The notes beneath the pieces were generated by a model. It had not been told where the DNA came from. It worked only from the letters and a program-made list of their open reading frames with translations, and made no database searches. From the IMG/VR virus record IMGVR_UViG_2875703104_000004: a stretch of DNA of 64,000 nucleotides. The stretch is one strand, 5' to 3'. Of the stretch, positions 1,790 to 58,342 are shown one piece after another. This DNA comes from a virus (lineage: Duplodnaviria; Heunggongvirae; Uroviricota; Caudoviricetes). How positions within the stretch are numbered: the first letter of the stretch is position 1; every line of letters starts with the position of its first letter. The position numbers and the translations under genes were made by a program.

Positions 1790-4381
1790 TTAAAAATCAG
1801 CCTGATTCGGGATCAGTTTTTGCCAGATAACTGAAACGTATTTTGCCTGGTAACGGGCGTCATCAAGTGCATTATGGCGCTCACCTTCGAATGGAATAGC
1901 CGTTCTGGCATCGAAGTCTATGGCTTTCCCCAGCTCAACGATTGTGCGTACATCGCGATCGTTGTAGTAACGCCACGGGCAGGGGATCCCCTGCCGTTCG
2001 TATGAACGGCGCAAAATCGTGTTGTCGAAGTTGGCTCCATTTCCCCAGACCTGAACAAAAAATTCACCGGAGTTTTCGTCGATAAATTCCCGCAATTGTA
2101 ACAGTGCATCATCTAACGGGATTTCATCGGTCATAATGGCAGATTGCGCTTCGCGTGATTGCTTAAGCCACCATTTAATGGTGTCCCGATCAATGACNCC
2201 GCCAGCAGTTTCCAGATCGATAGTCTTACTAAATTCCGGTCCCATATCTCCGGTTTGCGGATCGAAAAATATTGCACCTATTGAGATGATCGGGGCATCA
2301 GGATTTTTTCCCATGGTTTCAAGGTCGATCATTAGATGGTCACACGTCCTGCTGGTGGATGTGATTTCTTGATGACCGTTCACCTTAATTGAGTGATCTG
2401 CCGTCTCGCCAGTTTCATTATCGCTATCGTGATGCTGATTGCCGNCAGTGTTCTCCTTGTGTGGATGTTCAGCGCCTTCCATTTCCTCCGGATCATCTTC
2501 CTGAACTTCAACCTGATACTCTTCATCGAATGTTTCCTGGTATGTTGCGTCGCCCATCACCGCGCCACAATCAGGGCAGTTGCCGCCGCCGGTCTGACCG
2601 CAGGCGGTGCAGACTTTTTCCACTTCCTGTTGCGNNNNNNNNNNNNNNNNNNNNNCTTCAACCTGATACTCTTCATCGAATGTTTCCTGGTATGTTGCGT
2701 CGCCCATCACCGCGCCACAATCAGGGCAGTTGCCGCCGCCGGTCTGACCGCAGGCGGTGCAGACTTTTTCCACTTCCTGTTGCGCCACTGGTTCGGATTG
2801 TTTCGTTTCTGGCTCGTTTTGTAACGCATTTGGGCTGTTTTGTTCCGCTTTTTGGTCGTTCCGTTCCGATTCATGCTGGTTCTGGTTCACAGAATCGCGA
2901 GTCTGGATCCCTTTGACCCATTTCGGATCATTAGGGTCGCTAATCCCCTCAACAAATTCACCACGCGATACAGCAAGTAACTTATCGGCGTCAGGCTGGC
3001 TGATATTGGCTGCCTGCATAATTTTGTTTACTTCGTCAGCGGTGACTTTTACTTGGTTAGCGGAACTCACCTGCGACTGAGCATCCAGCGACTGCGCGTT
3101 CTGGCCATGTTCAGTTGTATCCGGTTCCATTGTTTCAGTTGTTGCCTGTTCACCTGCCATTGCGTCAGATGGTTGTGGTTTTTCTTCTTCTGTTTCACGC
3201 TCAGTAACCACCTCGCGGTTAATTTCTTCCAGGATATCTTTTTCCGGCGTATGCCGGGCAGCTGTGAGAGTTTCCTTGCTGGGGTTCTCGTGATCAGTTT
3301 CCGTCAAATAGGCGTTGATATACCCCTGAAGGCGTCCCGGGTAGTGATAAAATTCAGGGTGTGCGCTTCGGATAAGTGCAAAAATAGCGGCGCGGGAATA
3401 GTCCAGAATACCCGGGGTTGCACGAAGTGCTGCGGACCATTCTTTGAACGGACTTTCTTTGTTCAGGACTACTTCTTTTGCGCGACGATAAACGCTGCCC
3501 GGAATTTCATAAATATTAAAATCCATCGGAAGTGTGGCTGCTGCAATCTCCACATCCAGTGTGTCGAGGGTGTGTACTAAATTCGGATTGCGATCGGTTT
3601 TGTTCCCACCGCCAGCATTAGCACCGGAAGCCGTGCGGGTGATGCGTGAAACACGATTTCCTTTCATCCACTCTTTTGTCAGCAAACCCCGATCAGTGTA
3701 GTCAGCGTCTAGGTATGCTTCGAAAAAAGCAGTTATTAGTCCCAGGTCTGAATTACCAGGATTAGGGAAAACTTTGTCAGTGTCACGAACCAGTTTGTGG
3801 AGGTCGCGAATCTCCAGCGAGTCGAGCAGACTGGTTTTATGCGAAATAGCCAGGGCAGTAACAGCCGGTAGTTCTTCAGCCCGTGCAATGTGTAATGCCT
3901 GGAGTTCGTCGCGTGAAACGTGCGTTACTGGTTTTTCGCTGCCGTGTTGAGCAAGCCAACGAATGGGCAGTTCCTGACCGGAGACAGGCAGAAGCATGCT
4001 CTCCTCAATCTCAGTCATGGCTTCGCCGTTGATGTTGGTATTGTCAGTGCTGGCTGGTTTGTCCTGAACAGAGGGGGAAGGGCCGATAAATGTCATTGTG
4101 ATGCCATCTTTCCCGCCTTTTTCATAGCGGTTGCAGAATTCAGTATCAAACACGCCTTCTGGCGGAAGGTCGTCAACAACGGGCAAATTGACGCGGACGG
4201 GTTTTTTAAAGTCGTCTTCATCATAATCGTTGTCATCCATTGCGGTAATGCAGCGGGAGATTGCAACAGATAATTTTTTTGCTGTAGTCCAGTAAAAACC
4301 ACCTTTAATTCCTAGGCGTTTTCTTACTTTGTCATTTTTTGCTTCGCAATATAGTGCAAATTCTTCTTTATCAGTGCTCAT
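1790..4381 (-). CDS. RecE-family exonuclease: N-terminal region RecE-like, C-terminal DEDDh (DnaQ-like) 3'-5' exonuclease domain; interrupted by an N-run and carries single Ns
   Basis: 863-aa ORF; N-terminal stretch ([22 protein letters not shown]...) matches E. coli RecE as I recall it; C-terminus has DLETMG ... HNALDDARY motifs typical of DnaQ-like exonucleases. Confidence 0.8.
2506..2784. other. Assembly gap (21 N at 2635-2655) flanked by identical 129-bp copies (2506-2634 and 2656-2784) inside the exonuclease gene
   Basis: Seen directly; produces a duplicated 42-aa peptide block either side of the X run in the ORF translation. Confidence 0.85.
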
Positions 4382-4474
4382 TATTGGTAAACCTCATCAC
4401 AGATTTAAGGGTGAACAAATCTCTGCCATTGCTGACATATAAGAATGAAACTGGATATTTATTACGGTGCTGTT

Positions 4475-4666
4475 TTAAAATCCTGCCGGGATTTCGTTAT
4501 TATCCTGGTGAATAACTTTATCGACCGGATAACAGTTGCCTGGAATTTTCTGTTCGGTTGCTGCTGCCATACATTCCTGCATTGTTCTGTGAACACTGAC
4601 TGCAATATCAACTGACTCTCCGGAAACAAGAAAAACCGTCAGAATAAGTGCAAATACTGGATTCAT
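4475..4666 (-). CDS. Small hypothetical protein with hydrophobic N-terminus (63 aa)
   Basis: Internal start MNPVFALILTVFLVSG (signal-peptide-like) translationally coupled to the upstream ORF. Confidence 0.4.
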   Translation of the reverse strand: MNPVFALILTVFLVSGESVDIAVSVHRTMQECMAAATEQKIPGNCYPVDKVIHQDNNEIPAGF

Positions 4667-4851
4667 TGTGCACATCCTTTTGGCATCAGACGTAAACGGG
4701 CCAGCATTGAAACAATGCATACTTTATTTAATAACTCCCGTTCGTGTTTTCTTTTGTTAATGGCATCTTCAGTAAATACAGGATTACTGATAGTGACACC
4801 AATTTCAAAACAACCTTCAGACGTATTAACGTTTGGTAATAACGTTTTCAT
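4663..4851 (-). CDS. Small hypothetical prophage protein (62 aa)
   Basis: Internal ATG of ORF 4663-4956 preceded by GAGGG at suitable spacing; ATGA overlap with the next small ORF. Confidence 0.4.
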   Translation of the reverse strand: MKTLLPNVNTSEGCFEIGVTISNPVFTEDAINKRKHERELLNKVCIVSMLARLRLMPKGCAQ

Positions 4852-5120
4852 TATCGCGCCCTCAACAATGAGTTTTGTGATGCGGTGCCTGGTGCCTCCA
4901 GGTGACGTTAACCAGTTAACAATTAACGCCGGATACAGAGAATCCACCCATAACACTGTTTTTGGTTTTAACTGTTCCGCGTGCGCTTAGCCGCATTCAC
5001 CGCATCACAAAATTCACTTTAAAAAGGGCGGCAGAGCAGTCACGGAGTAAAACTGATACCGCCAAACGTCACCAGAAAATTGATAACAGAGGGCGTTGCA
5101 GTGGGGTTGTCACTTAAGCG

Positions 5121-5384
5121 TATGGTCAACCTGACAACCCGGTGTCCTCAACGGGGGAAGGAATAACCCCGCCATACTTACCGCCGCGCCATTTCGCGGA
5201 TTGCCACAACCGGAAGCGCACGGTCGACGAAAATTTAACGACAGGCTATCTATGGTCAACCTGACAACCCGGTGTCCTCAACGGGGGAAGGAATAACCCC
5301 GCCATACTTACCGCCGCGCCATTTCGCGGATTGCCACAACCGGAAGCGCACGGTCGACGAAAATTTAACGACAGGCTATCTATG
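5121..5384. repeat. Perfect tandem duplication of a 132-bp unit (5121-5252, 5253-5384)
   Basis: Seen directly; non-coding context; probably an assembly artefact. Confidence 0.8.
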
Positions 5385-5549
5385 AACCAGCTACCTCGCC
5401 GTGCGCTTTCGCGTTATGGTCTGACTTTTCAGGGAAATATCCTTTCAGTAAACTGTCAGTGCCGGATGCTCACCCGTGTCCGGCGCACGCACTCCACCTC
5501 ACCCGTGGAGAACTCCTTAATTACCAACCTTAGCTTCGTTGGTTATCTA

Positions 5550-5768
5550 TTAACGCGGGTATGTAATCATTCTGGCAATGCTTAATGCCGCTGCTTTTTC
5601 CAGCCTGGTGATATCCTGCTCCAGAGCGGACAGATTTTCAGCCTGCTTAGCTCTGGCTTCATTAGCCCATTTCAGATCCTGCGCTGCATTAATTTTCTGG
5701 CGCATCCACTCATAAAGTTCATCATCGGTATAGTCTGGCGCGATGATGACGGGTTCTCGTTTCTGCAT
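5550..5768 (-). CDS. Hypothetical prophage early-region protein (72 aa)
   Basis: ORF-track ORF in the same orientation as neighbouring early genes; no motif recognised. Confidence 0.4.
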   Translation of the reverse strand: MQKREPVIIAPDYTDDELYEWMRQKINAAQDLKWANEARAKQAENLSALEQDITRLEKAAALSIARMITYPR

Positions 5769-13485: not shown

Positions 13486-14037
13486 AACTGGAAGATTTAC
13501 CGAAATACTACTCCCCAAAATCCCCTGGCCTGACCGATGCATCGGCCTCAACGTCAAAAGATGCGCTGAGTATCACTGATGTGATGGCCGCGCAGGGCAT
13601 GACACAGAATCGGGCTGNGAAAGCGTTATCGCCGTGATGTGGCGCTTATTGTTCGCCAGCAGCGGCTGAAATTAAGCCTGTCCGGAAGGCTGGCGATAAA
13701 GGTGATTGCAGAGCCACCGGATAAGCGTCGTCGCGACCTGGACAATATCCTGAAAGCACCGCTGGATGCGCTGACGCATGCGGGAGTGTTAATGGACGAT
13801 GAGCAGTTTGATGAAATCAATATCGTTCGTGGTCAGCCAGTATCTGGTGGACGTNTGGGGGTGAAGATTTACCCCATAATGCATNAAGAGCAGGTCAAAA
13901 AATGAAACTGGAAGATTTACCGAAATACTACTCCCCAAAATCCCCTGGCCTGACCGATGCATCGGCCTCAACGTCAAAAGATGCGCTGAGTATCACTGAT
14001 GTGATGGCCGCGCAGGGCATGACACAGAATCGGGCTG
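13199..14037. repeat. Tandem duplication of about 419 bp (13199-13617, 13619-14037) joined by an N at 13618
   Basis: Seen directly; second copy carries extra Ns; duplicates the rusA 3' end and Q 5' end; likely a join artefact. Confidence 0.85.
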
Positions 14038-14365
14038 AGATGGGNTTTTCTGCGTTCCTGGGGAAAATGGGCATCAGTATGAATGACAGGGCGCGGGCAA
14101 CAGAATTACTGGCAGATTATGCACTCAGTCGGTGCGATCGTGTGGCGGCGTTGAGAAAACTTCCGGCAGAAATAAAACCGGTAGTGATGCGCATTATGGC
14201 TTCGTACGCTTTTGAGGATTATGCCCGCAGCGCAGCGAGTAAAAAGCAGTGCCCTTGTTGCTATGGGGAAAAATTTATTGAAAGCGTAGTTTTTACAAAC
14301 AAGGTCCAGTATCCGGATGGTAAGCCGCCGGTATGGGCAAAGTGTACGAAAGGTGTGTATTCGTC
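13903..14365 (+). CDS. Q: Lambda-Q-like late antiterminator, 3' end cut off at the N at 14366 (an N-terminal copy also at 13483-13617)
   Basis: KYYSPKSPGLTD...LSITDVMAAQGMTQNRA...CPCCYG resembles lambda Q (FHSPKSP...DVMAAMGM...) by recall. Confidence 0.6.
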
Positions 14366-14366
14366 N
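14366..14366. other. Probable contig junction (single N) between the phage Q gene and a truncated chromosomal/island gene
   Basis: Coding frame of Q and of the opposing SitA-like gene both terminate at this N. Confidence 0.7.
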
Positions 14367-14917
14367 AGTTCCGTAATCTGCTTACGCAGGGGGGCAAGGG
14401 TTTGGGTAATCTTGGCTTTATAAGTATCGGCATTGCGTTGGTAGGTTTGTGCATTTGCCGGATCGTATTTTATCAACGCATCACGAATATTATCGACGTA
14501 AATCAGAGCATTATCTGGCGACATCCATGCATGGGGGTTAGGTTTGCCCTCATAGGGTCCTTCGGTGATCCCTACAGGCGTCACACCCGAAGAGACAATT
14601 ACTTCTGGAACCCCATTGAGATGCTGGTAAAAGCGTTGGAACCACAATTCCAGATTCATACCATTGGCGAGAATCAGTTGTGCCCCCTGCGCACGTTTAA
14701 TATCGCCAGGGGTAGGCTGATACTCATGAATTTCTGCACCAGGCTTGGTTATGGATGAGACTTCTGCAGCATCTCCCGCCACGTTTTTGGCCATATCCGC
14801 GATGATGGTAAATGTTGTAATGACCTTGAATTTTTCAGTTGCACTTGCCTGAAATGCGATCGAGCAGGTGAGTGCGAGGCCCCCCAAGAGCATGGTTACT
14901 TTTTTTATCGAGTGCAT
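14367..14917 (-). CDS. N-terminal 183 aa of a SitA/YfeA/MntC-family Mn/Fe ABC-transporter periplasmic binding protein (truncated at the junction)
   Basis: Signal peptide MHSIKKVTMLLGGLALTCSIAFQASA then TroA-like region EKFKVITTFTIIADMAK...EIHEYQPTPGDIKRA...NPHAWMSP. Confidence 0.7.
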
Positions 14918-15603
14918 AATTTAGTACCTATAGTGAGCAAAATTAGAACAAACATAGCAACGGCTATGTTTTATAGCACAACCTATACAAAATGAAAATG
15001 ATTATCATTAGCGGTTTTGAGGCCCAAAACAGGGATTAGGTTGTTTCCGGCTGGCGACGCGTTATTGAGGAAAAAAGTAAGGCAGCTAGTAGGCTTTGAA
15101 ATAACGTTTTGCGGTTGGCTGATGCAATTTCGAGAGTGCATGTATTGAATGATTTCTAGCCGTTACTGATTTTCGTATTTTTTGTATGGGAGGATTTGCA
15201 CCTCTCCCCACCGAGCCTCCATGACTTTACTCCACTGTCTCTAGGGCTGCTGTGTGCCAGGAGCGGAAGCAGGGGGGCCAGAGACTCCTTAAAAGTTGAT
15301 AGCTCGTTTTGCAGGGAGACTTACACGGTAAGCGTTATTCCGAAGAGCTTAAAATTGAAGCAGTCAAACGGGTTGTTGAGCGTGTTTATGCGCTGCCATC
15401 TGATTAATCGACGGAAGCAGTTCCGTTTGGTCTATGATGCAGTTGTCCGGCAGGCGCTCTGTGACGCAAAAGAACGATAGGAGTAGCATTGAAGTGAACG
15501 AGGTTATGCTTGTCTTATATTATCCTCTATTTTAAAAACATCAGCTGGTTGTGTAAGAGTTTTTATTGTTTTATCTTGTTGACTTTGCTTTTATGAAAAC
15601 AGA

Positions 15604-16374
15604 GTGATTGATACAATGAAAACCTTAAGTGGGAAAGAGTTTAGGAAATTATTTAATCGTTATGAGACAGGATTCTATCTAAGTGAGTTTGAATACTTAA
15701 AGGACTTTGATCCTTTGTTTCCTGAATGCGTAGGGAAAGAATTAAAGTTGGGTTATAAACGAAAAGTTGATGTATGGTGCGAAGAGGATGCTGCGCTATA
15801 TGCAGAATTTATAGCTACAAAAGAAAGGCTGAAAAGAGGCCGGTTAATCCTAAAAATAAACCAAGTGTGGTCGCGTGTATATCCTGCTTATATTTATGCA
15901 ATTGAAGAAAGAATAAATGTCAGGGCAAAGGGGAGAGAGTCATTTAAGTATGAAACTGTGCAAGAAAAACAATGTAAACTTTCCATAATGTTAGATGGTC
16001 TGAAAGACCTTGAATGTGAAATAGCTATGATTTCAAGTGAGTTTGAAATTGAAAAACACTCTATGCACTATTTTTATATGATTTTTGATATTGAACGCTA
16101 TATAAATGACTGCAGTTACTTTGTTTTTTCTGCTGCTAAAGTTGTTAAAGGCGTGATTCAATGCATTGGTTACATTGACAAAAATAACAAAGCAAGTTGC
16201 GATGAATTTTATTCAGGCAGCTATGAATGCTTGGATGATGATCAGGAAACACTGAACTATTTAAATGAATCATGCGCAGAGGGTATAGACGCTGATAAAG
16301 ATCTCATCAGGAAGAATGAGTTATTAGCCTTATCCCTGAAGGAATTGTATCAACTTCTCGTTTCAAAAAAATAA
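15604..16374 (+). CDS. Hypothetical protein (256 aa), AT-rich, function unknown
   Basis: ORF-track ORF, low GC relative to prophage DNA; no motif recognised. Confidence 0.5.
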   Translation: MIDTMKTLSGKEFRKLFNRYETGFYLSEFEYLKDFDPLFPECVGKELKLGYKRKVDVWCEEDAALYAEFIATKERLKRGRLILKINQVWSRVYPAYIYAIEERINVRAKGRESFKYETVQEKQCKLSIMLDGLKDLECEIAMISSEFEIEKHSMHYFYMIFDIERYINDCSYFVFSAAKVVKGVIQCIGYIDKNNKASCDEFYSGSYECLDDDQETLNYLNESCAEGIDADKDLIRKNELLALSLKELYQLLVSKK

Positions 16375-16832
16375 CAAGTAATACGGCGAGCGATATGACG
16401 TGCCATGGGATATCCGCACCCAGCAGCATGTTGTCTCCACGATGTCCGCAGTTCGCTCATAATAGACATTCACTACAGTTATAGTAGAAGGTATGCATGC
16501 TGCTGAGTGGGGAAAGTGTGAAAGAAAAGAAGACAGCTGCTTTGTTTGTCGTCACGTTTATCTTCATTGGCTATGCAAGTCGTAATACAAGGCGGGACAA
16601 AACTGAGACACATAAGGCCTCGCAATGGCTTGCAAGGCCACACATGTATTGAGATGTTAATAAAATGTAGACTTGTAATTTTGATATAAATGGTAGAGAA
16701 AATCTTTCCCCAAAATAAAAACGAACGTCAATGAAATCAAACGGTTGAATAAAGTTGATTTTGGCTAATACAAAGACAAGAAAATAATATTTATGATTAA
16801 ATATCAGCGAGTTGAATACATAATTTTTATAT

Positions 16833-16998
16833 ACTGCTGCGCCACATGGGTTGGACCGAAGCGGCTGATTTAATTGTTAAAGGTATGGAAGGCGCAATCA
16901 ATGCGAAGACCGTAACCTATGACTTCGAACGTCTGATGGAAGGCGCTAAACTGTTGAAATGTTCAGAGTTTGGTGACGCGATCATCAAGAATATGTAA
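16833..16998 (+). pseudogene. icd: Displaced 3' fragment of icd (isocitrate dehydrogenase), last about 54 codons
   Basis: Translation [55 protein letters not shown] matches the Icd C-terminus by recall; no icd sequence upstream of 16833. Confidence 0.85.
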
Positions 16999-17021
16999 TC
17001 ACTACATGTGTTAAATATTAT

Positions 17022-17052
17022 AACGGGCGTATAACACGCCCGTTGTTTTTTG
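17022..17052 (+). terminator. Rho-independent terminator (icd terminator)
   Basis: Hairpin acgggcgt-ataa-cacgcccgt followed by TTTTTTGTT immediately after the icd stop. Confidence 0.7.
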
Positions 17053-17434
17053 TTAGCCTGCTAACGGTTATCAAAATTTTATCAAAATAAGTTATCAAAA
17101 CCCCTTGGTTGTTGGGGGGCTGCCAGATGGCAGTTCTCCTGCTAGGTTCCCTCGGGGCATTCCTCAGCTTTTTATTATTGCTGGTGGATGGCCGTTAATA
17201 TTTAAGATCTGTTATGCGCCAGACGCTGTGCTTACTAGAATATTGTTGTGTCAAATGGTTTGGTATACTCTGATTGTGGCTAATATGTAAATCATTTTAA
17301 CTAATAATTAAAATTTCTGAGGGTACTCGAGTTTTCTTATATATTTAACTTTCTCGCAATATACATTTACGTTTCTGTTGTTGTTTTTGATATAATTCAA
17401 TGAGTCTCAACAAAACAAGATTTTCGGAAATTAT

Positions 17435-18952
17435 ATGGATATCATTATTGTACCCCGAGACCAACGTATTCCTGCCTCAGGCATTAGTACGGCTTACTTG
17501 CATGTGGATCATTGGAATGACTTTTCATTCATTACAATGTTTTACATGTATCTGTTTGATCAGAAAGGTGAACGCCATGAAATTGGGAATGTCAAGATTG
17601 GTTTTCAAGGACAAACAACTCAACAATCAACTTACTCCACATTAGGGGACAGGTTTAAAATTCTCCCAGAAGGATATTTTTCCGTTGGTCAGGATGTCGA
17701 CTATTATCAGAGGATTTCAAATTTACCAGAATCCGTCAAAGTTTCGTTACTTGAGGCGCTCAAAGATATTGCTTATACGCCAGAACTTATAGATTTCGTT
17801 AAGAATGAAGCGGTCTTTAAAACGTCTTTGCTTCGGTATGTTAGCCTGTCTGTTATTAAAGGACAGTTTGCGCGAGTGCTTGAGGGAAAGGGTCCACTGA
17901 CTAATTTTGAGTTTAAGTTCATTCGCCCTGCACAAGACAAAATTTCCGATATTGAATTATCATTTAAGGTAAAAGTAGGAGAAAAACCAAGTACCAATAT
18001 TCATGCGATCATAGGTCGTAATGGTGTGGGGAAAACGACGATTCTAAATGGAATGATTGAAGCTGTTACCAGTAAAGGTACGTCGAACGCAAAATTTTAT
18101 GATCTGGAGGGGTGGAGAGAAGACCCGATTGATAATGATTACTTTAGTAGTTTAGTCTCTGTGTCATTTAGCGCATTCGATCCATTCGAGCCACCAAGTG
18201 AACAACCTGATCCATCAAAGGGAACTTGCTACTTCTATATAGGTTTGAAAAAAAAAGGAGAGTCGCTGAAAGGGCTAAATGATATTCATGAAGACTTTCT
18301 AGAAGCTTTGACGCTATGCTTTAGCCAGCATCCTAAGCGTGAAAGATGGCTGAAGGCCATTGATACTTTGGAGTCTGATGAAAATTTTGCAAGCATGGAG
18401 CTGAAAAATCTAGCGGAATACAATGATGAGATGCTCGTTAGTAATGCACGGAAATGTATAAAAAGGATGAGTTCCGGTCATGCGGTTGTGTTATTAACAC
18501 TCACACGTTTAGTCGCAACGGTAGAAGAAAAAACGTTAGTGCTAATTGATGAACCAGAGAGCCATCTTCATCCTCCGTTGCTGTCTGCTTTTATTCGTGC
18601 GCTGTCTGATTTGCTACTTGACAGAAATGGTCTTTCTATTATTGCTACTCACTCACCTGTGGTACTTCAAGAGGTCCCTAAACGATGTGTTTGGAAAATT
18701 AATCGTTCTAGATTATCTACCGAATCTCGCAGGCCAGACATTGAAACATTTGGTGAGAATGTAGGAATCTTAACAAGAGAGGTGTTTGGTCTTGAAGTTG
18801 TCAAATCTGGTTTTCACGATTTATTAGTCCAATCAGTTAAGTCAGGTGGAACATATGAGGAGATAGTTGATGAGTATCGTAACCAGCTTGGTGTTGAAGC
18901 TCGAGCTCTATTAAAAGCGCTTGTCACACACAGAGATCGGAGTGTTAAGTAA
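17435..18952 (+). CDS. ABC-type (AAA_15/AAA_21-like) ATPase with a 190-aa N-terminal domain of unknown function; first gene of a candidate defence pair
   Basis: 505-aa ORF; Walker A IIGRNGVGKTT, Walker B/D-loop LVLIDEPESHLHPPL, H-loop ATHSP; stop overlaps the start of the next gene (TAATG). Confidence 0.8.
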   Translation: MDIIIVPRDQRIPASGISTAYLHVDHWNDFSFITMFYMYLFDQKGERHEIGNVKIGFQGQTTQQSTYSTLGDRFKILPEGYFSVGQDVDYYQRISNLPESVKVSLLEALKDIAYTPELIDFVKNEAVFKTSLLRYVSLSVIKGQFARVLEGKGPLTNFEFKFIRPAQDKISDIELSFKVKVGEKPSTNIHAIIGRNGVGKTTILNGMIEAVTSKGTSNAKFYDLEGWREDPIDNDYFSSLVSVSFSAFDPFEPPSEQPDPSKGTCYFYIGLKKKGESLKGLNDIHEDFLEALTLCFSQHPKRERWLKAIDTLESDENFASMELKNLAEYNDEMLVSNARKCIKRMSSGHAVVLLTLTRLVATVEEKTLVLIDEPESHLHPPLLSAFIRALSDLLLDRNGLSIIATHSPVVLQEVPKRCVWKINRSRLSTESRRPDIETFGENVGILTREVFGLEVVKSGFHDLLVQSVKSGGTYEEIVDEYRNQLGVEARALLKALVTHRDRSVK

Positions 18953-19809
18953 TGTTGAAACTTAAACAACCTGCTTACACATATGCCGATATGCTGACTA
19001 GTTGCCGCGAAGGCATAACCGGTAATCCGGGCTTGTTGCTGAAAGTAAATGAAGCAATAACTGATTTGCAAACACTGGCAGCTTCATATAGCGCATCGGC
19101 ATCAACTGGTGAGCTTTATACAATACAACCATTGAAAAACAAAGATAAGGAAGACCCTATTGTTGTCGGTCGGTTAAAGAAATCTGACTTTGTTAAGCTT
19201 TATGGCAATTATGTTGTTGGGAAGAAAAAGCCTGCTCGAGCTATTTATGATTCCCTGATTACTGCTGCTAATGAAAAATGTCCATATTGTGGTGGAATTG
19301 GGCGCCCTCGAAATTTAGATCATTATTTGCCTAAAGCTTACTATCCTCAGTTTTCTATATTGCCAGTTAATCTGGTGCCTGCTTGTCGAGACTGTAATAT
19401 GGATGGCAAAGGGGAAGTTTTTGCAAGAAATGAAGCAGAACAGATCATACATCCCTATTTAGACGATAGCCGTTATTATGATGAACAGTGGATATCGGCT
19501 AGATACTTGGCTGGCAAAAATGATGAGCCAGGAGTTATTGAGTATTTTGTTTCTCCACCGGCTGATTGGGATGAAGCACACAAACAAAGAGTGGAAAAAC
19601 ATTTTAACGATTTTGATTTGTCTTTAAGATATTCGAAAGAGGCTAGTGCGAGATTAGTTGTACTTTTAGCTCTATATAACTCAGTGCTACCACTCTCCAG
19701 AGATAAAAATGCTGCTAAACACCTTATATTTCAAACAATAATTAATAAATCGCCTTTTGTGAATCATTGGGAACGGGTTATGTGTTTGGCTCTTATGTCA
19801 GACTTGTAG
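18952..19809 (+). CDS. HNH endonuclease-motif protein (285 aa); second gene of the candidate defence pair
   Basis: CPYCGG...LDHYLPKAYYP...N...PACRDCN, a zinc-finger HNH signature; translationally coupled to the ATPase gene. Confidence 0.8.
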   Translation: MLKLKQPAYTYADMLTSCREGITGNPGLLLKVNEAITDLQTLAASYSASASTGELYTIQPLKNKDKEDPIVVGRLKKSDFVKLYGNYVVGKKKPARAIYDSLITAANEKCPYCGGIGRPRNLDHYLPKAYYPQFSILPVNLVPACRDCNMDGKGEVFARNEAEQIIHPYLDDSRYYDEQWISARYLAGKNDEPGVIEYFVSPPADWDEAHKQRVEKHFNDFDLSLRYSKEASARLVVLLALYNSVLPLSRDKNAAKHLIFQTIINKSPFVNHWERVMCLALMSDL

Positions 19810-19864
19810 TAATGCTTGAAGTTTTTATTTCTGTTCTAATTTCGTAGTTCCATTTTATTAAATA

Positions 19865-19897
19865 GATACCAAGCTCTATGCATAAGAGCTTGGTATC
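19865..19897. terminator. Perfect 13-bp-stem hairpin (gataccaagctct / agagcttggtatc), candidate bidirectional terminator after the HNH gene
   Basis: Seen directly; flanking sequence only moderately T-rich. Confidence 0.4.
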
Positions 19898-20077
19898 TAT
19901 TGAAATTAAGCTCAATAACTGATCTGCTCTCCATTGATTAACACGTCACAATATTAGTAATGTAACTATTAGGTTTCGAGATTAACTGCGAACTTCTGCT
20001 TTTTGCTCAAAGTGGACTGTTTGGTTCTTTTTCAAGTGTAGTTCGAAATTCAAGGTGGCGTTAAGGCACTTAATGCT

Positions 20078-21204
20078 TTACAACGCTACTTTACTCCATC
20101 CTTTACCTCGATCATCATGATAACGATCGGTTTGCTGTTGCGTTTTATGACCAAGTAGTTTTTGTGTATTTAAACCCTGTTCTTTATACAAACGTTCTGA
20201 TAAAGACCTTTGTTCATGAAATGTTGCGGGAGAACCTTCACCCCAGTTAATTCCTGCTAAATCCCTCGCTTTACTGAAATTCATCGTCAATGTATTGGCT
20301 TTAACCTGCGCGCCGCGTTCAGCCTGTGAGGTAGTACGAAAAAAATGTACAAGGTATGGGCTGACAGCATAGTCACGGCAGCGGGCTACTACATCGCGCA
20401 AACTCCATTTAATCGCATTGAGACGCAGGGAAAGCGGGATGGCGATTTTGCTCCCGGTTTTTTCCTGGATGACATGGAGATGATCATCCCAAATATCGCT
20501 AAATTTCATACGCGAGATATCACCTAACCTCTGGCCGGTAACCAGTGCTAACAGCATGGCATTCCCCATATAACGATGACTGGCATCAGCGATATCAAAG
20601 ATTTTTTGCCACTCTTCAAGACTTAACCGTTGTCGGGTAATTTTTCTTCTGGGCTGTTTGGTGGCTAATGCCGGGTTATAGCCAGGGGGACTTCTCCGTA
20701 GTGTTGCGCCTCTTTGAAAACATCAATCAGTACGGAACGAACTACTTGCGCCATTCTCGGCTGTCCGGCGGCGATATACTCGTCAAGCAACTGGGCTATA
20801 TCCCTGACATCAACGGCTGAAATTAACTTCAGTCCTGCTCGTTCCCTGAGCAAGGATACTGGTTTGGCTTTCTGTTTATAGGTGTTGAGCTTTATATCGC
20901 CACTTTTCAGTCTGTCTTCCTGGATTGCTTGATAGCGATCTAACCAGGTTGACGTTGTGATTGCTTTTCCTTTGCTGGTTGCGATCCTGTCACTGATAGC
21001 TAGAATCTGCCGGGTTCTTTGCTCAGCTAGGCGTGTATTGGCCTCAGTGGCAATAGCAATGGCTTCAGCTTCGTTTGTGCCCAAAGAATGAAACTTCCCG
21101 GTCACTGGATGCTTATATCGCCAATAAACTTTATTTACTTTTCTGCTATAGAGCGGATACAAGTTCGGGACTGAAACATTATTCTTACGTGGTCTGGCTG
21201 CCAT
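20078..21204 (-). pseudogene. int: Lambda-Int-like integrase split by a -1 frameshift in a C5 homopolymer (G run on the + strand at 20685-20689)
   Basis: N-terminal ORF 20665-21204 and C-terminal ORF 20078-20569 are co-linear with the integrase at 1-1119; adding one C restores ...GEVPPGYNPALATKQPRRKITRQRL... Confidence 0.8.
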
Positions 21205-21317
21205 TACTTAAAATCCTTTGTAGAATAATAGAATCACTTTTCTTAATGACAGGAGTAACTAATTCTCCAACTAACTCTGCGTCCTCACGTACTCGCCATA
21301 GTCGACCTTGTTTCATT
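21185..21317 (-). CDS. Small ORF in the xis position (43 aa), just left of the IS911 end
   Basis: ATG at 21317, overlaps the int start; assignment by position only. Confidence 0.3.
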
Positions 21318-21396
21318 GCCGGTGTGTAGTGGCACACTGAATTTGGCCACCTGAACAGAGGTGATATGCTCACCTCAGAACAACACAGGTGCTCCA

Positions 21397-21657
21397 ATGA
21401 AAAAAAGAAATTTCAGCGCAGAGTTTAAACGCGAATCCGCTCAACTGGTTGTTGACCAGAACTACACGGTGGCAGATGCCGCCAAAGCTATGGATATCGG
21501 CCTTTCCACAATGACAAGATGGGTCAAACAACTGCGTGATGAGCGTCAGGGCAAAACACCAAAAGCCTCTCCGATAACACCAGAACAAATCGAAATACGT
21601 GAGCTGAGGAAAAAGCTACAACGCATTGAAATGGAGAATGAAATATTAAAAAANGCN
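21397..21657 (+). pseudogene. IS911 orfA, 5' part, interrupted by the IS30 left end
   Basis: Reading frame ends at the junction with TGTAGATTCAATTGG; Ns at 21654 and 21657. Confidence 0.7.
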
Positions 21658-21723
21658 ACTGTAGATTCAATTGGTCAACGCAACAGTTATGTGAAAACAT
21701 GGGGTTGCGGAGGTTTTTTGAAT

Positions 21724-23332
21724 GAGACGAACATTTACAGCAGAGGAAAAAGCCTCTGTTTTTGAACTATGGAAGAACGGAACAGGCTTCAGTGAAATAG
21801 CGAATATCCTGGGTTCAAAACCCGGAACGATCTTCACTATGTTAAGGGATACTGGCGGCATAAAACCCCATGAGCGTAAGCGGGCTGTAGCTCACCTGAC
21901 ACTGTCTGAGCGCGAGGAGATACGAGCTGGTTTGTCAGCCAAAATGAGCATTCGTGCGATAGCTACTGCGCTGAATCGCAGTCCTTCGACGATCTCACGT
22001 GAAGTTCAGCGTAATCGGGGCAGACGCTATTACAAAGCTGTTGATGCTAATAACCGAGCCAACAGAATGGCGAAAAGGCCAAAACCGTGCTTACTGGATC
22101 AAAATTTACCATTGCGAAAGCTTGTTCTGGAAAAGCTGGAGATGAAATGGTCTCCAGAGCAAATATCAGGATGGTTAAGGCGAACAAAACCACGTCAAAA
22201 AACGCTGCGAATATCACCTGAGACAATTTATAAAACGCTGTACTTTCGTAGCCGTGAAGCGCTACACCACCTGAATATACAGCATCTGCGACGGTCGCAT
22301 AGCCTTCGCCATGGCAGGCGTCATACCCGCAAAGGCGAAAGAGGTATGAACCGCCCCGGGAATCCTGGAGACTAAACTTCCTGAGAAAGAGGTAAACAGG
22401 ATGACTAAAAATACTCGTTTTTCCCCCGAAGTCCGTCAACGGGCAGTCCGTATGGTTCTGGAAAGTCAGAGCGAATATGACTCACAATGGGCGACAATTT
22501 GTTCCATTGCTCCAAAGATTGGCTGTACGCCGGAGACTCTGCGTGTCTGGGTTCGCCAGCATGAGCGGGATACCGGGGGCGGTGATGGAGGGCTCACCAC
22601 CGCTGAACGTCAGCGTCTGAAAGAGCTGGAACGTGAAAATCGTGAACTGCGCCGCAGTAACGATATCCTTCGCCAGGCTTCCGCTTATTTTGCGAAGGCG
22701 GAGTTCGACCGCCTCTGGAAAAAATNCGAATATCACCTGAGACAATTTATAAAACGCTGTACTTTCGTAGCCGTGAAGCGCTACACCACCTGAATATACA
22801 GCATCTGCGACGGTCGCATAGCCTTCGCCATGGCAGGCGTCATACCCGCAAAGGCGAAAGAGGTACGATTAACATAGTGAACGGAACACCAATTCACGAA
22901 CGTTCCCGAAATATCGATAACAGACGCTCTCTGGGACATTGGGAGGGCGATTTAGTCTCAGGTACAAAAAACTCTCATATAGCCACACTTGTAGACCGAA
23001 AATCACGTTATACGATCATCCTTAGACTCAGGGGCAAAGATTCTGTCTCAGTAAATCAGGCTCTTACCGACAAATTCCTGAGTTTACCGTCAGAACTCAG
23101 AAAATCACTGACATGGGACAGAGGAATGGAACTGGCCAGACATCTAGAATTTACTGTCAGCACCGGCGTTAAAGTTTACTTCTGCGATCCTCAGAGTCCT
23201 TGGCAGCGGGGAACAAATGAGAACACAAATGGGCTAATTCGGCAGTACTTTCCTAAAAAGACATGTCTTGCCCAATATACTCAACATGAACTAGATCTGG
23301 TTGCTGCTCAGCTAAACAACAGAACCGCGCTC
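21724..23332 (+). pseudogene. IS30 transposase gene, split by the IS629-like insertion/duplication and missing its last about 25 codons
   Basis: N-part 21724-22370 and C-part 22862-23332 (HWEGDL...GTNENTNGLIRQYFPK); the ORF ends in IS911-derived sequence. Confidence 0.7.
22376..22725 (+). mobile_element. IS629/IS1203-like (IS3 family) left end with orfA, cut off at an N join
   Basis: Terminal TGAACCGCCCCGGG and Orf[42 protein letters not shown]... (recall); sequence returns to IS30 after the N at 22726. Confidence 0.65.
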
Positions 23333-25600
<2,268 letters not shown>

Positions 25601-25636
25601 CCACTACAAAACACTGCTGAGATATTCAATTTTCCA

Positions 25637-26509
25637 GTGCCGGATGTGGCACAAAAGGAGCGGCGCGTGGCAGATCTCGACGATGGTTATACGCGCATTG
25701 CAAATGAGTTGCTGGAAGCTGTGATGCTGGCCGGATTAACACAGCACCAGTTTCTGGTCTTCCTGGCTGTCATGCGCAAAACATATGGCTTTAATAAAAG
25801 ACTGGATTGGGTGAGCAACGAGCAACTTTCCGAATTGACCGGGATATTGCCGCACAAGTGTTCTGCTGCAAAAAGCGTTCTGGTAAAGCGTGGGATTTTT
25901 ATTCAGAGCGGGCGGAATATCGGCATTAATAATGTGGTCAGTGAATGGTCAACATTACCCGAATCAGGTAAGAAAAATAAAGTTTACCTGAAAGAGGTAA
26001 ATTTACCTGAATCAGGTAAGAAAAGTTTACCCAAATCAGGTAAACACAAAAGACAAACTAACAAAAGACAATATAAAACCTTTTTCGTCCGAGAATTCTG
26101 ACGAATCCTCTGACCAGCCAGAAAACGATCTTCCTGTGGTGAAACCGGATGCTGCAATTCAGAGCGGCAGCAAGTGGGGGACAGCAGAAGACCTGATCGC
26201 CGCAGAGTGGATGTTTGACATGGTGAAGACCATCGCGCCATCAGCCAGAAAACCGAATTTGCAGGGTGGGCTAACGATATCCGCCTGATGCGTGAACGTG
26301 ACGGACGTAACCACCGCGACATGTGTGTACTGTTCCGCTGGGCATGCCAGGACAACTTTTGGTCTGGTAACGTGCTGAGCCCGGCCAAACTTCGCGACAA
26401 GTGGACCCAACTCGAAATCAACCGTAACAAACAACAGGCTGGCGTGACAGCCGGAAAACCAAAACTCGACCTGACAAACACTGACTGGATTTACGGGGTG
26501 GATTTATGA
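25637..26509 (+). pseudogene. O: Lambda O-like replication initiator, 5'-truncated by the IS nest and broken by two frameshifts at homopolymer runs (near 26060-26100 and near 26270)
   Basis: VADLDDGYTRIANELLEA...QFLVFLAVMRKTYGFNK and C-terminal ...LSPAKLRDKWTQLEINRNKQ...TDWIYGVDL resemble lambda O by recall; three frames needed to read through. Confidence 0.7.
25955..26043 (+). repeat. Four iteron-like repeats (TTTACCYGAATCAGGTAA-type) followed by an A-rich stretch: candidate ori-lambda-type origin inside O
   Basis: Seen directly; iterons embedded in the O gene are an established lambda feature. Confidence 0.6.
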
Positions 26510-27207
26510 AAAACATCGCCGCACAGATGGTTAACTTTGACCGTGAGCAGATGCGTCGGATCGCCAACAATATGCCGGAACAGTACGACGAAAAGCCGCA
26601 GGTACAACAGGTAGCGCAGATCATCAATGGTGTGTTCAGCCAGTTACTGGCAACTTTCCCGGCGAGCCTGGCTAACCGGGACCAGAACGAACTGAACGAA
26701 ATTCGCCGCCAGTGGGTGCTGGCTTTCCGGGAAAACGGGATCACCACAATGGAACAGGTTAACGCAGGAATGCGCGTAGCCCGTCGGCAGAATCGACCAT
26801 TCCTGCCATCACCCGGGCAGTTTGTTGCATGGTGCCGTGAAGAAGCATCCGTTATTGCCGGACTGCCAAACGCCAGCGAGCTGGTTGATATGGTTTACGA
26901 GTATTGCCGGAAGCGTGGCCTGTATCCGGATGCAGAGTCTTATCCGTGGAAATCAAACGCGCACTACTGGCTGGTTACTAGCCTGTACCAGAATATGCGG
27001 GCCAATGCGCTTACTGATACGGAATTACGGCGCAAGGCTGCCGATGAACTGACTTGTATGACCGCGCGAATTAACCGTGGTGAGGCGATACCTGAACCAG
27101 TAAAACAACTTCCTGTCATGGGCGGTAGACCTCTAAATCGTGTTCAGGCGCTGGCGAAGATCGCAGAAATCAAAGCTAAGTTCGGGCTGAAAGGAGTGAT
27201 GAAATAG
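26506..27207 (+). CDS. P: Lambda P replication protein (DnaB helicase loader), 233 aa
   Basis: MKNIAAQMVNFDREQMRRIANNMPEQYDEKPQVQQVAQIINGVF... near-identical to lambda P by recall. Confidence 0.9.
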   Translation: MKNIAAQMVNFDREQMRRIANNMPEQYDEKPQVQQVAQIINGVFSQLLATFPASLANRDQNELNEIRRQWVLAFRENGITTMEQVNAGMRVARRQNRPFLPSPGQFVAWCREEASVIAGLPNASELVDMVYEYCRKRGLYPDAESYPWKSNAHYWLVTSLYQNMRANALTDTELRRKAADELTCMTARINRGEAIPEPVKQLPVMGGRPLNRVQALAKIAEIKAKFGLKGVMK

Positions 27208-27456
27208 AGCTAAAGTATTAGCTTAAAAATAAAGTATACCTAGCGAATATAATCTAGGACTAGTTGTTATGCCCGAAATGATTGATTGCGTGAGTAACAA
27301 AGTGTCTCTTCCATTGTTGTGAAATCATTTAGCCATAAAGTTTATGCAGAGATTTTATTTTATTTTTGAGTTGATTTTTTTGTAACGATCTGTATATTTC
27401 GCGCCTCTTGTCATACCAGTTATTTTTTTCATTATATTCATAACGTTGATTGAACT

Positions 27457-30400
27457 ATGACCACTGTGAATAAAAAGTTAAAAAAAACTGCATCTGGCGC
27501 GATTACATGGTCGGTAATTGTTACCCAGATATTATCTCCAGTTTCTCTTTCTTTGATCCCAGCAAACAGTTTTGCATCATCTGGTAATAAAGATGTTACG
27601 CAAACTTATGCCAGCGATGAGCATGCAAATAAAGTGGCCTCATTTGCAGCAAGTGCAGGTCAGAGCCTGGCGAATAATAATGCAAGTAGTTTTGCTGTAA
27701 ATACTTTATCAACTCAGGCGACAAAAGAGGTCGTCGACTGGTTGCAACAATATGGCAATGCGCGCATCAAGCTTAATGTCGATGATTCTTTTTCCTTGAA
27801 GGATTCATCATTCGACTTTTTATATCCATGGCTGGATACTCAGGATTATGTGTTATTCAGTCAGACATCACTACATCGTACTGATGACCGAAATCAGACC
27901 AATATTGGTTTGGGGATTCGTCATTTCACTCCTGATAACGCAATGTTGGGTGCGAATGTTTTTTATGATTACGATTTAAGTCGCAGTCACTCTCGTGCAG
28001 GTTTTGGGGTTGAGTACTGGAGGGATTATTTCAGGCTTGGTGTAAATACCTATTTTGGTCTATCTGACTGGAAGAACAGTCGGGATATTGATGATTATCT
28101 GGAAAGACCTGCAAATGGCTGGGATTTTTCTGCTGAAGGATGGCTACCTGCTTATCCGCAATTAGGGGCATCTATTCAGTTTGAAAAATATTATGGTAAA
28201 AATGTCGGGTTATTTGGAAGCGATAACCTTCAGGAAAACCCTTACGCAGTTACTGGGGGAATTTCTTATACACCAGTTCCTCTGATTAAGTTTTCTGCAC
28301 AGCATAAGCAAGGACAGAGCAACGTTCACGATACAACCTTCGGTGTTGAGTTTAATTATCGCCCGGGCGTTTCCCTGGCTGAACAGCTTAGCAGCGATAA
28401 TGTTGCAGTTATGCGAGAAGTCCAGAATCGGCGTTATGATTTTGTTGAACGAAATAACAACATTGTTCTGGAGTACAAGAAGAAGCATGCACTGAAAATC
28501 AGTTTGCCAGAGTCTGTTCAGGGGGAGGGGGAATCAATCATCCCTGTAACACTGACAATCAACAATGCTAGTGGTGGTATCAAGTCTGTACAGTGGAATG
28601 ATAGTGCATTCACTGCGGCTGGCGGCAAGATCAGTGGAAATGGCACATCATGGCAGATCACTTTACCGGCTTATAAAAGCGAAGGTGTAAATTCGTGGAA
28701 TGTTGGAGCCACAGTCCAGGATAACAGAGGCAATGTTTCCAACTATGCCGTTATGAATATCAGCGTTAATAATAGTGGTGTCTCGACAGCGGATTCATCT
28801 TTTACGCTGGATGGGGATTCGTCTCCGACGATCTCTGCTGATGGTCAATCCACTTATCCAATAGTATTAAGCCTGAAAGACAGTAACGGTAAGGCATTAA
28901 CCGGACTGGCTGATGACATTGAAATGTCTGTGGAATTTACTGCGGATAGCAATAGTGCTCGACAGCGTGAAACGGTAACTGCTCCGTCATTAGGCGCGGT
29001 AGAGGAAATCTCTGCTGGTGTATATCGCTCTGTTCTGGCTGCTGGTTCGCAGGCTGGGACGGTACGTGTAACTGCAAAAGTTCAGGGAAAAACATTTACT
29101 CTCAGTATTAAGCAAACAGCAGCAACAGAACCTGATTCTGAGGTCAGTGCTGTTTTAACCGCTGCACCAGCAGAACAGGTAGTTGGTTACAATATCAATC
29201 TACAACTGGCAGTGAAGGATTCACAAGGAAATGCAATCACTGGTGATAACACTCTGAGCTTTTATGCTCTTAACCAGGCAGAAGGAGTCGAGTTTGGGAC
29301 TGTAACGGAAAAAGACGGTGTCTATAGCGCGACAGTAACTTCAAAACGAGCTGGTAAGATTACTATCGGTGTTAAATCTGATAGTCATGATTTCTCAGGT
29401 GTTAAGAAAGAAATCACCTTTATTGAGGACCGGCAGCAGGTTACATTCTCTCAGTTTGAAGCCAGCCAAAATAATGCATTGGCTGATGGAAAACAGAGAA
29501 ATATGGTAACTGTAAGCCTTGCGGACCGTTTCGGCAATGTTGTTCCTGGTTATGCTGTCACATTGTCTTTACCAGCAGGGATAACTCAAGTTGGTGGTGA
29601 ACATGCTGTTTCAACTGACGAAAATGGTAATGCTATTTTTGCGTTAATAAGCTCCACTCCGGGGTCTTACGTGATTACAGCTCATGCTGGTTCTCAGATG
29701 TCTACTGAGTTAACAGTGACCTTTGCATCAAATATGACCGGAGCTTCACTGTCACTGACGCCTGAAAGCAGTAGTTTAATTTCCAATATTCCTGCTAATG
29801 GTAAGGATGCAGCGGTATTAGATGTGCAGCTGACAAATACGAATGCGTCGGTCAATGGGCAAAAGATTCAGCTCATCACCTCATCTGAAGGATTATCTGT
29901 ACCAACAAATATCGTGACTGATTCAACAGGGCATGTTTCTGTTCCGCTTACAACGGTGAAAGCTGGTGAGTACACGGTGACTGCACGGGTGACTGACGGT
30001 TCCCATAGCGTGGAATCTGGCAGCGTTAAGTTAACTTTTGTGCCCGATGTTGCTTCTGCAGAACTTACTATGAGTGTATCAAAACAGGAGATTGTGGCCG
30101 ATGGCAGTGAAAACGCAACAGTAAACATTCAGTTGGTTGATGCGAATAACAATGCGTTTACAGGTGAGGTGGATTTAACGATTACACCATCGACGGGAGC
30201 ATCATTGACCAGTAGTAATCTGCAACTGGATGCTCATGGACAGGCAACAACGCAGTTCACTGCATCGAAATCAGGCCAGTACACAATTCAGGCCGAGTAT
30301 GTTCTGGATGGGAAACGCATAACCGCAAGCCAGAATATTGATGCCGTGACGGATGTGAAGGGGGCTGTGTTGGAGATCACATCATCTGCATCTTCGGCTG

Positions 30401-31018: not shown

Positions 31019-31047
31019 TGGGGAGGGCTTAGCCCTCCCTCTTTTTA
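31019..31047. terminator. Bidirectional rho-independent terminator between the convergent adhesin and esterase genes
   Basis: GGGGAGGGC-TTA-GCCCTCCC hairpin with a T-run on the + strand and an A-run (T-run on the - strand) upstream. Confidence 0.6.
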
Positions 31048-58062: not shown

Positions 58063-58342
58063 ATGGAAGAAGGCGTTGTATGCCACACAACGCCTCACTG
58101 TTCATTTCTTCTTTTTCTCTGGTGGAACCCGATGAATAAGAGTTGCACTGGTTTCCGATGAGATGGCGATATACTCGGGCAAAGTATGCTGGCAGTTTTC
58201 CAACTGGTCAAAAATACCTGCTCTCGTCTGTTGCAATGCCTGCAGCATGCGGCGGCAATGCGCCTTGCTTTTACTAACCATCTTTCCTTCCTCTATCAGT
58301 CGCTGCGTGAACTCATCATGNAATACCAGGTAAATGCGGATG

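Follow-up and report, generated by a model that had tools for sequence, protein, structure and literature searches.

The window analysed here is the whole 64,000-nt stretch of IMG/VR virus record IMGVR_UViG_2875703104_000004, a draft assembly in which pieces are joined by single Ns, some bases are ambiguous and prophage segments are duplicated or out of order. Within it, an open reading frame (ORF), here called gene 31, and the AT-rich DNA that follows it lie, as a preliminary description of the region had placed them, between a fragment of sitA on the left and a 3' fragment of icd on the right. The region near certainly forms the right end of a lambdoid prophage of the phage 21 type that sits in icd of Escherichia coli, and the feature is already known, being annotated in phage 21 as genes 31 and 32 and attP. 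This end carries the following features.

14261-14917, minus strand: ORF of the sitA fragment, the left flank of the region.
14367-14917, minus strand: 5' part of sitA (binding protein of a Mn/Fe ATP-binding cassette transporter) of the phage-21-type prophage, annotated as sitA in CFT073, MS1657 and phage 21.
15309-15407, plus strand: scrap of an IS3-family transposase OrfA (GKRYSEELKIEAVKRV...), from matches to annotated IS3 transposases.
15505-15615, plus strand: upstream block that travels with gene 31 in all eight contexts, delimited by alignment and homology limits.
15616-16374, plus strand: gene 31 (CPT_21_31, UMO75446.1; WP_000567449.1), 252 amino acids (aa); RefSeq annotates it from the GTG at 15604.
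16653-16834, plus strand: phage 21 attP, P arm, which here forms the left arm of attR; 27.5% GC, common to other icd phages.
16835-16845, no strand assigned: crossover zone and end of the phage-21-type DNA, where phage 21 identity stops and identity to an icd-PtuAB-intE arrangement starts (at 16835).

The assignment is carried by DNA identity. Positions 14918-16845 are 99.5% identical over their full length to the classical lambdoid phage 21 (OL657228) and match about 20 further sequenced phages at 99.5-100% identity, among them ev017, ev207, Perceval, PhiR63_2 and Lambda_2E9. Mismatches to phage 21 number 0 in 15206-16844, 18 in 16845-17003 (11% divergence, in icd') and 0 from there to 17049, past which the window has no similarity to that phage; colinearity with it is confined to 14367-17049. 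An older phage 21 int/att record, M61865, covers 16299-16844, and the protein gp31 is 100% identical in amino acids to the product of the phage 21 locus. On the left, the sitA part is truncated by an assembly join, the single N at 14366, and is colinear with phage 21 from 24866 onward; at this N an early-region gene is fused to mid-sitA.

The order annotated in phage 21 is a side tail fibre gene, two small ORFs, sitDCBA (minus strand), small ORFs with the IS3 scrap and CPT_21_31, followed by CPT_21_32, a 165-bp icd-like segment, a terminator, attP arm sites, int and xis. The window shares the succession sitDCBA, gene 31, gene 32, icd' and attP with this phage and differs from it in being an integrated copy, in which the icd' after 16845 and everything rightward are not those of phage 21; where the phage itself continues with attP arm sites and int, the window continues with the PtuAB-intE segment of a second prophage. 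Gene 31 thus stands where the phage 21 gp31 family stands, in the b region of an icd-integrating lambdoid phage, in the interval between sitA and attP. In CFT073, tail genes, the sit operon, the ORF (WP_000567449.1) and icd' are followed by host ycgX, and MS1657 has the same prophage end, but with a second prophage next instead of ycgX.

The preliminary description had regarded the ORF as distal cargo of the icd-integrated element that carries a neighbouring ATPase-HNH gene pair. It is indeed cargo at the distal (attR) end of an icd-integrated prophage, but not of the ATPase-HNH element: because phage 21 identity ends exactly where icd homology starts, and the other prophage matches from 16835, the ORF belongs to the left, sit-carrying prophage. 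From this junction we read 16835-16845 as the attR of the phage-21-type prophage (prophage A) joined to the former attL of the second prophage (prophage B). Prophage A would accordingly have entered an icd whose 3' end the resident prophage B had already supplied, and gene 31 would be the last gene of prophage A. The part belonging to prophage B holds the following features.

16846-16998, plus strand: icd 3' fragment, the last 50 codons, of the prophage B type and not that of phage 21.
17020-17046, plus strand: icd terminator hairpin, of the prophage B type by sequence comparison.
17435-19809, plus strand: PtuA/PtuB-like (Septu-type; PDC-M01A/B) ATPase and HNH pair, cargo between attL and intE of prophage B.
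19994-20017, plus strand: site resembling the A+ hairpin described below, just after PtuB, from motif comparison.
About 20018-21324, minus strand: frameshifted intE, as ORFs 20078-20569 and 20665-21204; it is frameshifted likewise in the MCJCHV-1 prophage.

From 16835 rightward, 81 complete genomes are 100% identical to the window through the full-length icd 3' end, the AAA ATPase, the HNH gene and intE. The pair belongs to the Septu family by its scores (ATPase, PtuA1/PtuA E=4e-239 and PDC-M01A E=3e-217; HNH protein, PDC-M01B E=1e-114), and its two genes overlap at 18952. Since the integrase is split into two ORFs, prophage B is probably immobile. The census comprised 5,426 complete E. coli genomes, in none of which does gene 31 (760 genomes) adjoin the icd-linked PtuAB (81 genomes), so that a co-occurrence of gene 31 with the ATPase-HNH pair, proposed earlier as a check, failed to appear. 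The best cover by a single complete genome was 88% of 15000-17400 and 96% of 16700-20100, the latter beginning at 16835. The defective prophage of MCJCHV-1 is arranged as icd, PtuAB, frameshifted intE, inverse autotransporter, hydrolase, sitDCBA, icd' and ycgX, and is without gene 31.

The stop-free ORF reported at 15604-16374 (plus strand) exists, with 256 codons counted from GTG, and it is AT-rich as stated, with a GC content of 34.1% versus 49.6% for the whole window. The true start is almost certainly the ATG at 15616, which gives a predicted product of 252 aa: MKTLSGK opens every homologue, the alignment to the PHROG profile begins at residue 5, and this ATG is the start annotated in phage 21. 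Within the conserved upstream block there is a GAG/GGAG Shine-Dalgarno sequence and a weak but conserved promoter-like pair, TTGTGT (15549-15554) and TATCTT (15572-15577), spaced by 17 nt, which may be the promoter of gene 31. The OrfA scrap further upstream is part of a long version of the module that is found in Citrobacter too.

The absence of any family membership, the unusual composition, the IS3 scrap directly upstream and the insertion sequence IS1 that interrupts gene 31 in a few of the complete E. coli genomes would all suit a decaying remnant or chance ORF followed by junk. Against such an origin, shuffling this segment 2,000 times gave stop-free runs of at most 169 codons (mean 71), far below the 256 observed. 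Pairwise ratios of nonsynonymous to synonymous substitution (dN/dS) lie between 0.15 and 0.39 (21 pairs), the homologues are 63-99% identical and keep their full length in five genera, the structure is predicted with confidence, and the downstream stretch holds conserved modules and an exact integrase (Int) arm site. Comparison of the copies marks gene 31 as a genuine protein-coding gene under purifying selection, not a pseudogene remnant, and the remnant explanation is highly improbable.

The protein was described beforehand as an orphan without a recognisable motif, and the whole protein has no match in Pfam, NCBIfam or PADLOC. The only family match is PHROG 20520, annotated as of unknown function (phrog_20520, E=1.4e-177, residues 5-256). 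A word-indexed search of 5.8 billion clusters gave 22 clusters, all at least 63% identical, from E. coli, Citrobacter, Klebsiella, Mangrovibacter and an aeromonad, and an exhaustive profile search of 1.84 billion representatives gave one full-length representative (a single 50%-identity cluster) plus fragments. The homology search that had been named as a check recovered the gp31 family alone and no relation to a metabolic or structural family.

Structure prediction, also named as a check, produced a confident helical bundle and no specific structural neighbour. The AlphaFold2 model, built from 20 sequences, has a predicted local distance difference test score (pLDDT) of 92.5; in it, residues 1-55 form a small unit of the order strand-helix-helix-strand-strand, and four long helices follow (56-110, 115-147, 153-189 and 206-251). 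The protein is acidic (isoelectric point 5.3) and has no transmembrane segment. In the homologue alignment the charged residues E98, R99, R103, E113, E117, K118, K121, K189, E197 and D207-D209 are invariant, as are C166, C183, C195 and H151; in the model, the charged ones appear to cluster at one tip of the helix bundle. The order of elements in the N-terminal 55 residues is compatible with an excisionase/AlpA/MerR-like winged helix (HTH_17), for which there was no Pfam match; Pfam found nothing either in the helical part or in N-terminal fragments cut from five homologues. This domain was also folded alone for a cleaner search, and the resulting model (pLDDT 48) was not used. An HEPN RNase was rejected, as neither an Rx4-6H motif at the start of the last bundle helix nor similarity to HEPN profiles was found.

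The gene travels with about 110 bp of conserved upstream and about 70 bp of downstream DNA. Of the 5,426 complete E. coli genomes, 760 carry the module 15505-16443, 758 of them at 99% identity or more. Beyond E. coli, Citrobacter, Klebsiella, Mangrovibacter and an aeromonad have it on mobile DNA of unrelated kinds. Besides the b region of a lambdoid prophage, the contexts are the cargo zone of an integrative and conjugative element (ICE; C. sedlakii), a P4-like island (C. werkmanii), chromosomal islets, a type I restriction-modification neighbourhood (the aeromonad) and, in C. telavivensis and K. variicola, small islets that also carry a 200-aa tyrosine recombinase. DNA homology among these contexts begins at 15239-15534 and stops at 16370-16459. 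The alignments show a self-contained single-gene module with estimated limits of about 15505-16443.

In lambdoid phages, the module occupies a cargo slot. The slot and its bounding sites are listed here; the letters A and B denote two loop types and the signs their orientation.

15097-15270, plus strand: left flank of the cargo slot, common to lambda 24184-24348, phi458 and AR_0119.
15245-15268, B-: hairpin site 'B-' (GGCTGCT GTGTGCCAGG AGCGGAA) at the end of the left flank.
16444-16467, plus strand: degenerate hairpin site 'A+' (GTCCGCA GTTCGCTCAT AATAGAC).
16445-16652, plus strand: right flank of the slot, an end module of lambdoid b regions, common to lambda 27323-27505, phi458, AR_0119 and part of DLP12.
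About 16609-16648: conserved hairpin at the att-proximal end of lambdoid b regions, with its core GGCCTTGCAAGCCATTGCGAGGCC at 16639-16616 on the minus strand; unannotated.

The flanks 15097-15270 and 16445-16652 hold other cargo in other lambdoid phages and loci: ea31/ea59 in lambda, an HEPN-annotated protein in AR_0119 and a 380-aa protein in phi458. The last is 93% identical to the gene directly adjoining the gene-31 homologue in the C. sedlakii ICE and has no match in Pfam, NCBIfam or PADLOC; its two loci, L016 (6439-7825) and L015 (phi458, 4190-5567), present it as a second orphan module of the same pool (L numbers are our labels for compared loci). Kinship of gp31 with the HEPN-annotated protein or with the phi458 protein (Orf54) was rejected, with hhalign probabilities of at most 0.2%. 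The lambda genes (L013 = J02459, 24509-26973) score as PtuB- and PtuA-like, with matches to PDC-M01B (E=8e-112), PDC-M01A (E=7e-202) and PtuA (E=4e-184), and are of the same family as the ATPase-HNH pair at 17435-19809 of the window. The b region of lambda (24350-27322) is one of the closest known parallels, sharing the slot beside attP, homologous flanks, the same inverted hairpin pair and non-essential accessory cargo; it differs in the cargo itself, which is unrelated and consists of an ATPase and HNH pair on the opposite strand, whereas gene 31 is a single orphan. Gene 31 is absent from some sit-carrying icd phages and prophages (L014, Lambda_4C10, 4138-4635; L142, MCJCHV-1, 18516-19427), where unrelated DNA of about 0.5 kb takes the place of window 15055-16553, so that the slot as a whole is cleanly present or absent.

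Downstream of gene 31, the stretch that had been called non-coding and AT-rich, 471 bp in length (16375-16845), does lack a convincing gene, but it is AT-rich only in part, with 46.8% GC in 16375-16652 and 27.5% in 16653-16845. It is mainly the phage attachment-site arm. The first bases, 16375-16443, are the tail of the gene-31 module (the Citrobacter, Klebsiella and other copies cease to be homologous in DNA at 16370-16459), and Rfam gave no match within 16375-16845. In the arm, an Int arm-type site, CTTTCCCCAAAA at 16704-16715, matches exactly the consensus YYTTCCCCAAAA, taken from the annotation of OL657228, and is the only exact match in the 64 kb. With this predicted arm-type site near the crossover and an AT-rich prophage end, the stretch is identified from its sequence as the P arm of attP, now part of attR.

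The small ORF proposed in this stretch also exists, at 16497-16652 (51 aa, MLLSGESVKEKK...), and is CPT_21_32 of phage 21, annotated there as a 'putative membrane protein'. By our reading of the alignment, a 2-nt indel divides the copies into two types, lambda/phi458 and phage 21/AR_0119, and differing stops yield 27-50 aa; just the first approximately 17 codons after (M/V)KEKK are conserved, with a hydrophobic stretch of about 14 residues. Because the frame is not kept among related copies, coding by gene 32 is doubtful, and the five synonymous changes among the 8-9 substitutions between the two closest types give a weak hint of it. The small membrane toxin of a type I toxin-antitoxin system was considered for 16497-16652 and gained no support, as a conserved frame for a short hydrophobic peptide was not found.

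The DLP12 part of the right flank lies between ompT and envY, and some portion of the flank is present in 4,086 of the 5,426 E. coli genomes. The better fold of its conserved hairpin is that of the minus strand in the window but that of the plus strand in lambda; counterparts lie at lambda 27478-27505 and in the K-12 ompT-envY interval (L004, 3001-3060), and the hairpin is found in most E. coli genomes. The identification of the hairpin at 16616-16639 with lambda sib/tI was rejected, as its counterpart is 27478-27505 and the lambda hairpin with a T-run that is presumably tI/sib lies about 45 nt nearer att.

The ends of the modules coincide with 24-nt hairpin sites of the form GTCCGCT-N10-AGCGGAC, with loop type A (TCGCTCA) or B (TGGCACA). 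In the window, module homology ends and the conserved right flank begins at the A+ site of 16444-16467, and lambda (L013) has counterpart sites at about 24328-24350 and 27322-27345. Such sites are widespread on Enterobacterales chromosomes, plasmids, ICEs and lambdoid phages. For 120 genome loci, the presence of an exact A site was the sole criterion of choice. Most belong to Erwinia, Pantoea, Klebsiella, Citrobacter, Enterobacter, Rahnella and Serratia, the rest to Idiomarina and a few others, and they lie on plasmids as well as on chromosomes. In these loci, stretches of 0.46-7.1 kb are enclosed by B-...A+ (or A-...B+) pairs, and A+B- (or B+A-) doublets, 33-42 nt apart, stand between modules. 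Some loci are perfect arrays, for example L102 (383-7628), and further sites occur in L043 and L007 (1680-13836). Two further modules are 96% and 86% identical between genera, and the DNA beyond the sites is unrelated.

A 200-aa tyrosine recombinase is encoded in 7-8 of the 120 loci (L007, 9235-9837; L006, 5385-5987; also L057, L128, L129 and L130), with an A site ending about 39 nt upstream of its start in five of six cases. It contains a Phage_integrase domain only, and its best NCBIfam matches (Xer recombinases, tyrosine-type DNA invertases) fall far below the curated cut-offs. Defence systems are sporadic in the cargo of 59 modules, and gene orientation there is mixed.

The sites were compared with known module-bounding repeats. 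Integron attC cassettes, the pdif (Xer) modules of Acinetobacter and doublets of the REPIN (repetitive extragenic palindromes forming hairpins) or BIME (bacterial interspersed mosaic element) kind share with them inverted imperfect palindromes that bound modules of one to several genes, the recurrence of modules in unrelated contexts, site doublets in between and a linked small tyrosine recombinase gene; in sequence, the hairpin sites are unlike the dif of pdif. An integron gene cassette was rejected, as no IntI-type integrase, GTTRRRY core or common orientation was found and the linked recombinase has only 200 aa. Identity with enterobacterial repetitive intergenic consensus sequences (ERIC, or intergenic repeat units, IRU) was also set aside in an informal comparison with the consensus: only 7 nt overlap the ERIC2 primer, and the doublets lack an ERIC core. 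Likewise, the right flank is not a decayed 5' end of the 200-aa recombinase gene, as there is no protein similarity and the hairpin site alone matches. Rfam, searched with the hairpin arrays, gave no family for the sites, and no paper containing the motif was found.

From their sequence and arrangement, the sites may be recombination sites or REPIN/BIME-like selfish repeats. A more far-reaching proposal is that gene 31 is cargo of an apparently undescribed Enterobacterales module-exchange system whose sites would be recombined by the linked 200-aa recombinase, gp31 being a single-protein conflict factor of new fold; taken as a whole, we consider this proposal unlikely.

For the function of gene 31, the best explanation overall is that this end of a phage-21-type prophage carries gene 31 as a moron with a stand-alone conflict function, a reading that we hold tentatively and at somewhat less than even probability. 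The conflict role itself, exclusion of or an abortive response to other phages or mobile DNA that would benefit the lysogen, is put forward with about one chance in three, and a defence or exclusion role is a plausible candidate; the preliminary description had likewise thought of defence or toxin genes. A weak promoter of its own would drive gene 31 rightward in the lysogen, against the direction of the sit operon and of early leftward transcription, and no terminator would intervene before that of icd. Its product would be a soluble cytoplasmic protein composed of a four-helix bundle and a small N-terminal alpha/beta domain, and the conserved charged tip could be a binding or catalytic site.

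The conflict role is preferred because gene 31 lies in the 'mcrA position' of an icd prophage, shares its slot with a PtuAB-like pair and has conflict-type neighbours. Prophage e14 of E. coli K-12, likewise at icd, carries lit beside intE and mcrA beside icdC. The arrangement in the window is alike in its integration site and in the accessory genes directly inside attL and attR, PtuAB taking the position of lit and gene 31 that of mcrA; it differs in that gp31 showed no resemblance to McrA or Lit in sequence or structure, though no test aimed at this was made, and is not known to confer defence. Neighbours of gene 31 copies, a modest line of evidence, include T5orf172/PDC-S57, a type I restriction endonuclease, PDC-S05, PDC-S23, WYL, HNH_2 and Imm50.

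Several observations weigh against this explanation. Defence-like proteins are only about 10% of the 52 neighbouring proteins, and the cargo of the 59 modules (131 ORFs) is mostly LysR, MFS, AraC, GNAT, LysE, TetR, ars and oxidoreductase genes; therefore, the hairpin sites mark accessory modules generally, not defence cassettes. Pfam and NCBIfam are silent on whole gp31, PADLOC-DB 2.0 gave noise only (PDC-M13C, E=0.0034 over 25 residues), the PDB sequence search gave no match with either the single sequence or the profile, and structure searches with the confident gp31 model returned no specific fold match. A consensus promoter scan passed no promoter and did not list the TTGTGT-17-TATCTT pair. 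The authors of the phage 21 genome applied HHpred and yet left gene 31 hypothetical (PMC9119081). In the literature, no paper was found that mentions the motif strings or the protein accessions, or that uses the CFT073 locus tag in connection with a function.

The same module cargo, mostly regulators, transporters and enzymes, speaks for gene 31 as a lysogenic-conversion or housekeeping accessory (a regulator, stress factor or adaptor) that aids the host as the sit operon does. It adjoins sitABCD, a fitness/virulence moron, and the modelled order of the N-terminal elements would fit a small DNA- or protein-binding domain. However, no regulator or enzyme family was detectable in Pfam or NCBIfam, the N-terminal domain did not fold confidently alone, and gene 31 recurs in conflict-rich neighbourhoods; we judge a host-physiological role rather unlikely.

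A third possibility is that gene 31 serves the mobile element as a counter-defence or lysogeny/excision accessory, acting transiently after entry and not in the established lysogen. The gene stands beside attP, and 37 bp upstream of its ATG there is a CII-activator-type TTGT-N6-TTGT (15566-15579), an annotated pattern match in the phage 21 record; prophage, ICE and P4-like islands all carry gene 31, as is the case with anti-restriction genes. Yet the first TTGT repeat is not conserved in non-phage copies (a metagenome copy), gp31 resembles no known anti-defence protein in PHROGs or BFVD, and many phage-21-like icd phages lack gene 31, for example Lambda_4C10 and the MCJCHV-1 prophage, so that it is dispensable for integration. 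A life-cycle role of this kind appears distinctly unlikely.

Some further observations concern prophage B and the draft. Next to the icd terminator, on its downstream side and in the attL region of prophage B, a stretch at 17012-17258 (minus strand) gave a sub-threshold Rfam match to STnc150, an Hfq-binding small RNA (34.9 bits versus a gathering threshold of 60, E=4.5e-5); a weaker match lies in the Klebsiella locus L007 (5197-5382). The early region of prophage B contains, as in MCJCHV-1, a gene for a 1183-aa inverse autotransporter (invasin/intimin-like; 27457-31008, plus strand) and an alpha/beta hydrolase gene (31045-32088, minus strand). N joins or ambiguous bases are found at 2198-2655, 7952, 13618-14366, 21654-22726, 37361 and 58005-58559, and duplicated blocks at 13105-13485/13639-13905 and 37484-41476/59177-62878. 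Phage-21-like late genes occupy 34974-57433, to the right of the early genes of the second prophage, and appear again from 59177.

As a sequence feature, the region is ordinary: a textbook phage whose b-region end and attachment arm are already annotated. Gene 31, which about 14% of complete E. coli genomes carry (CFT073, Nissle 1917 and ATCC 25922 among them), encodes a true orphan that is under selection and hops as a single gene, which makes gp31 a cheap and well-defined candidate for functional screens in clinical and probiotic strains. It is also a slot-mate of the long-mysterious ea31/ea59 of lambda, which are PtuAB-like by score. The hairpin-site grammar that sets off the slot is met again across Enterobacterales and, if the hairpins are recombination sites, would explain the shuffling of accessory modules. 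Should the module-exchange proposal be true, ea31/ea59, gene 31 and hundreds of islets on chromosomes or plasmids would be swapped as units among phages, ICEs, plasmids and chromosomes.

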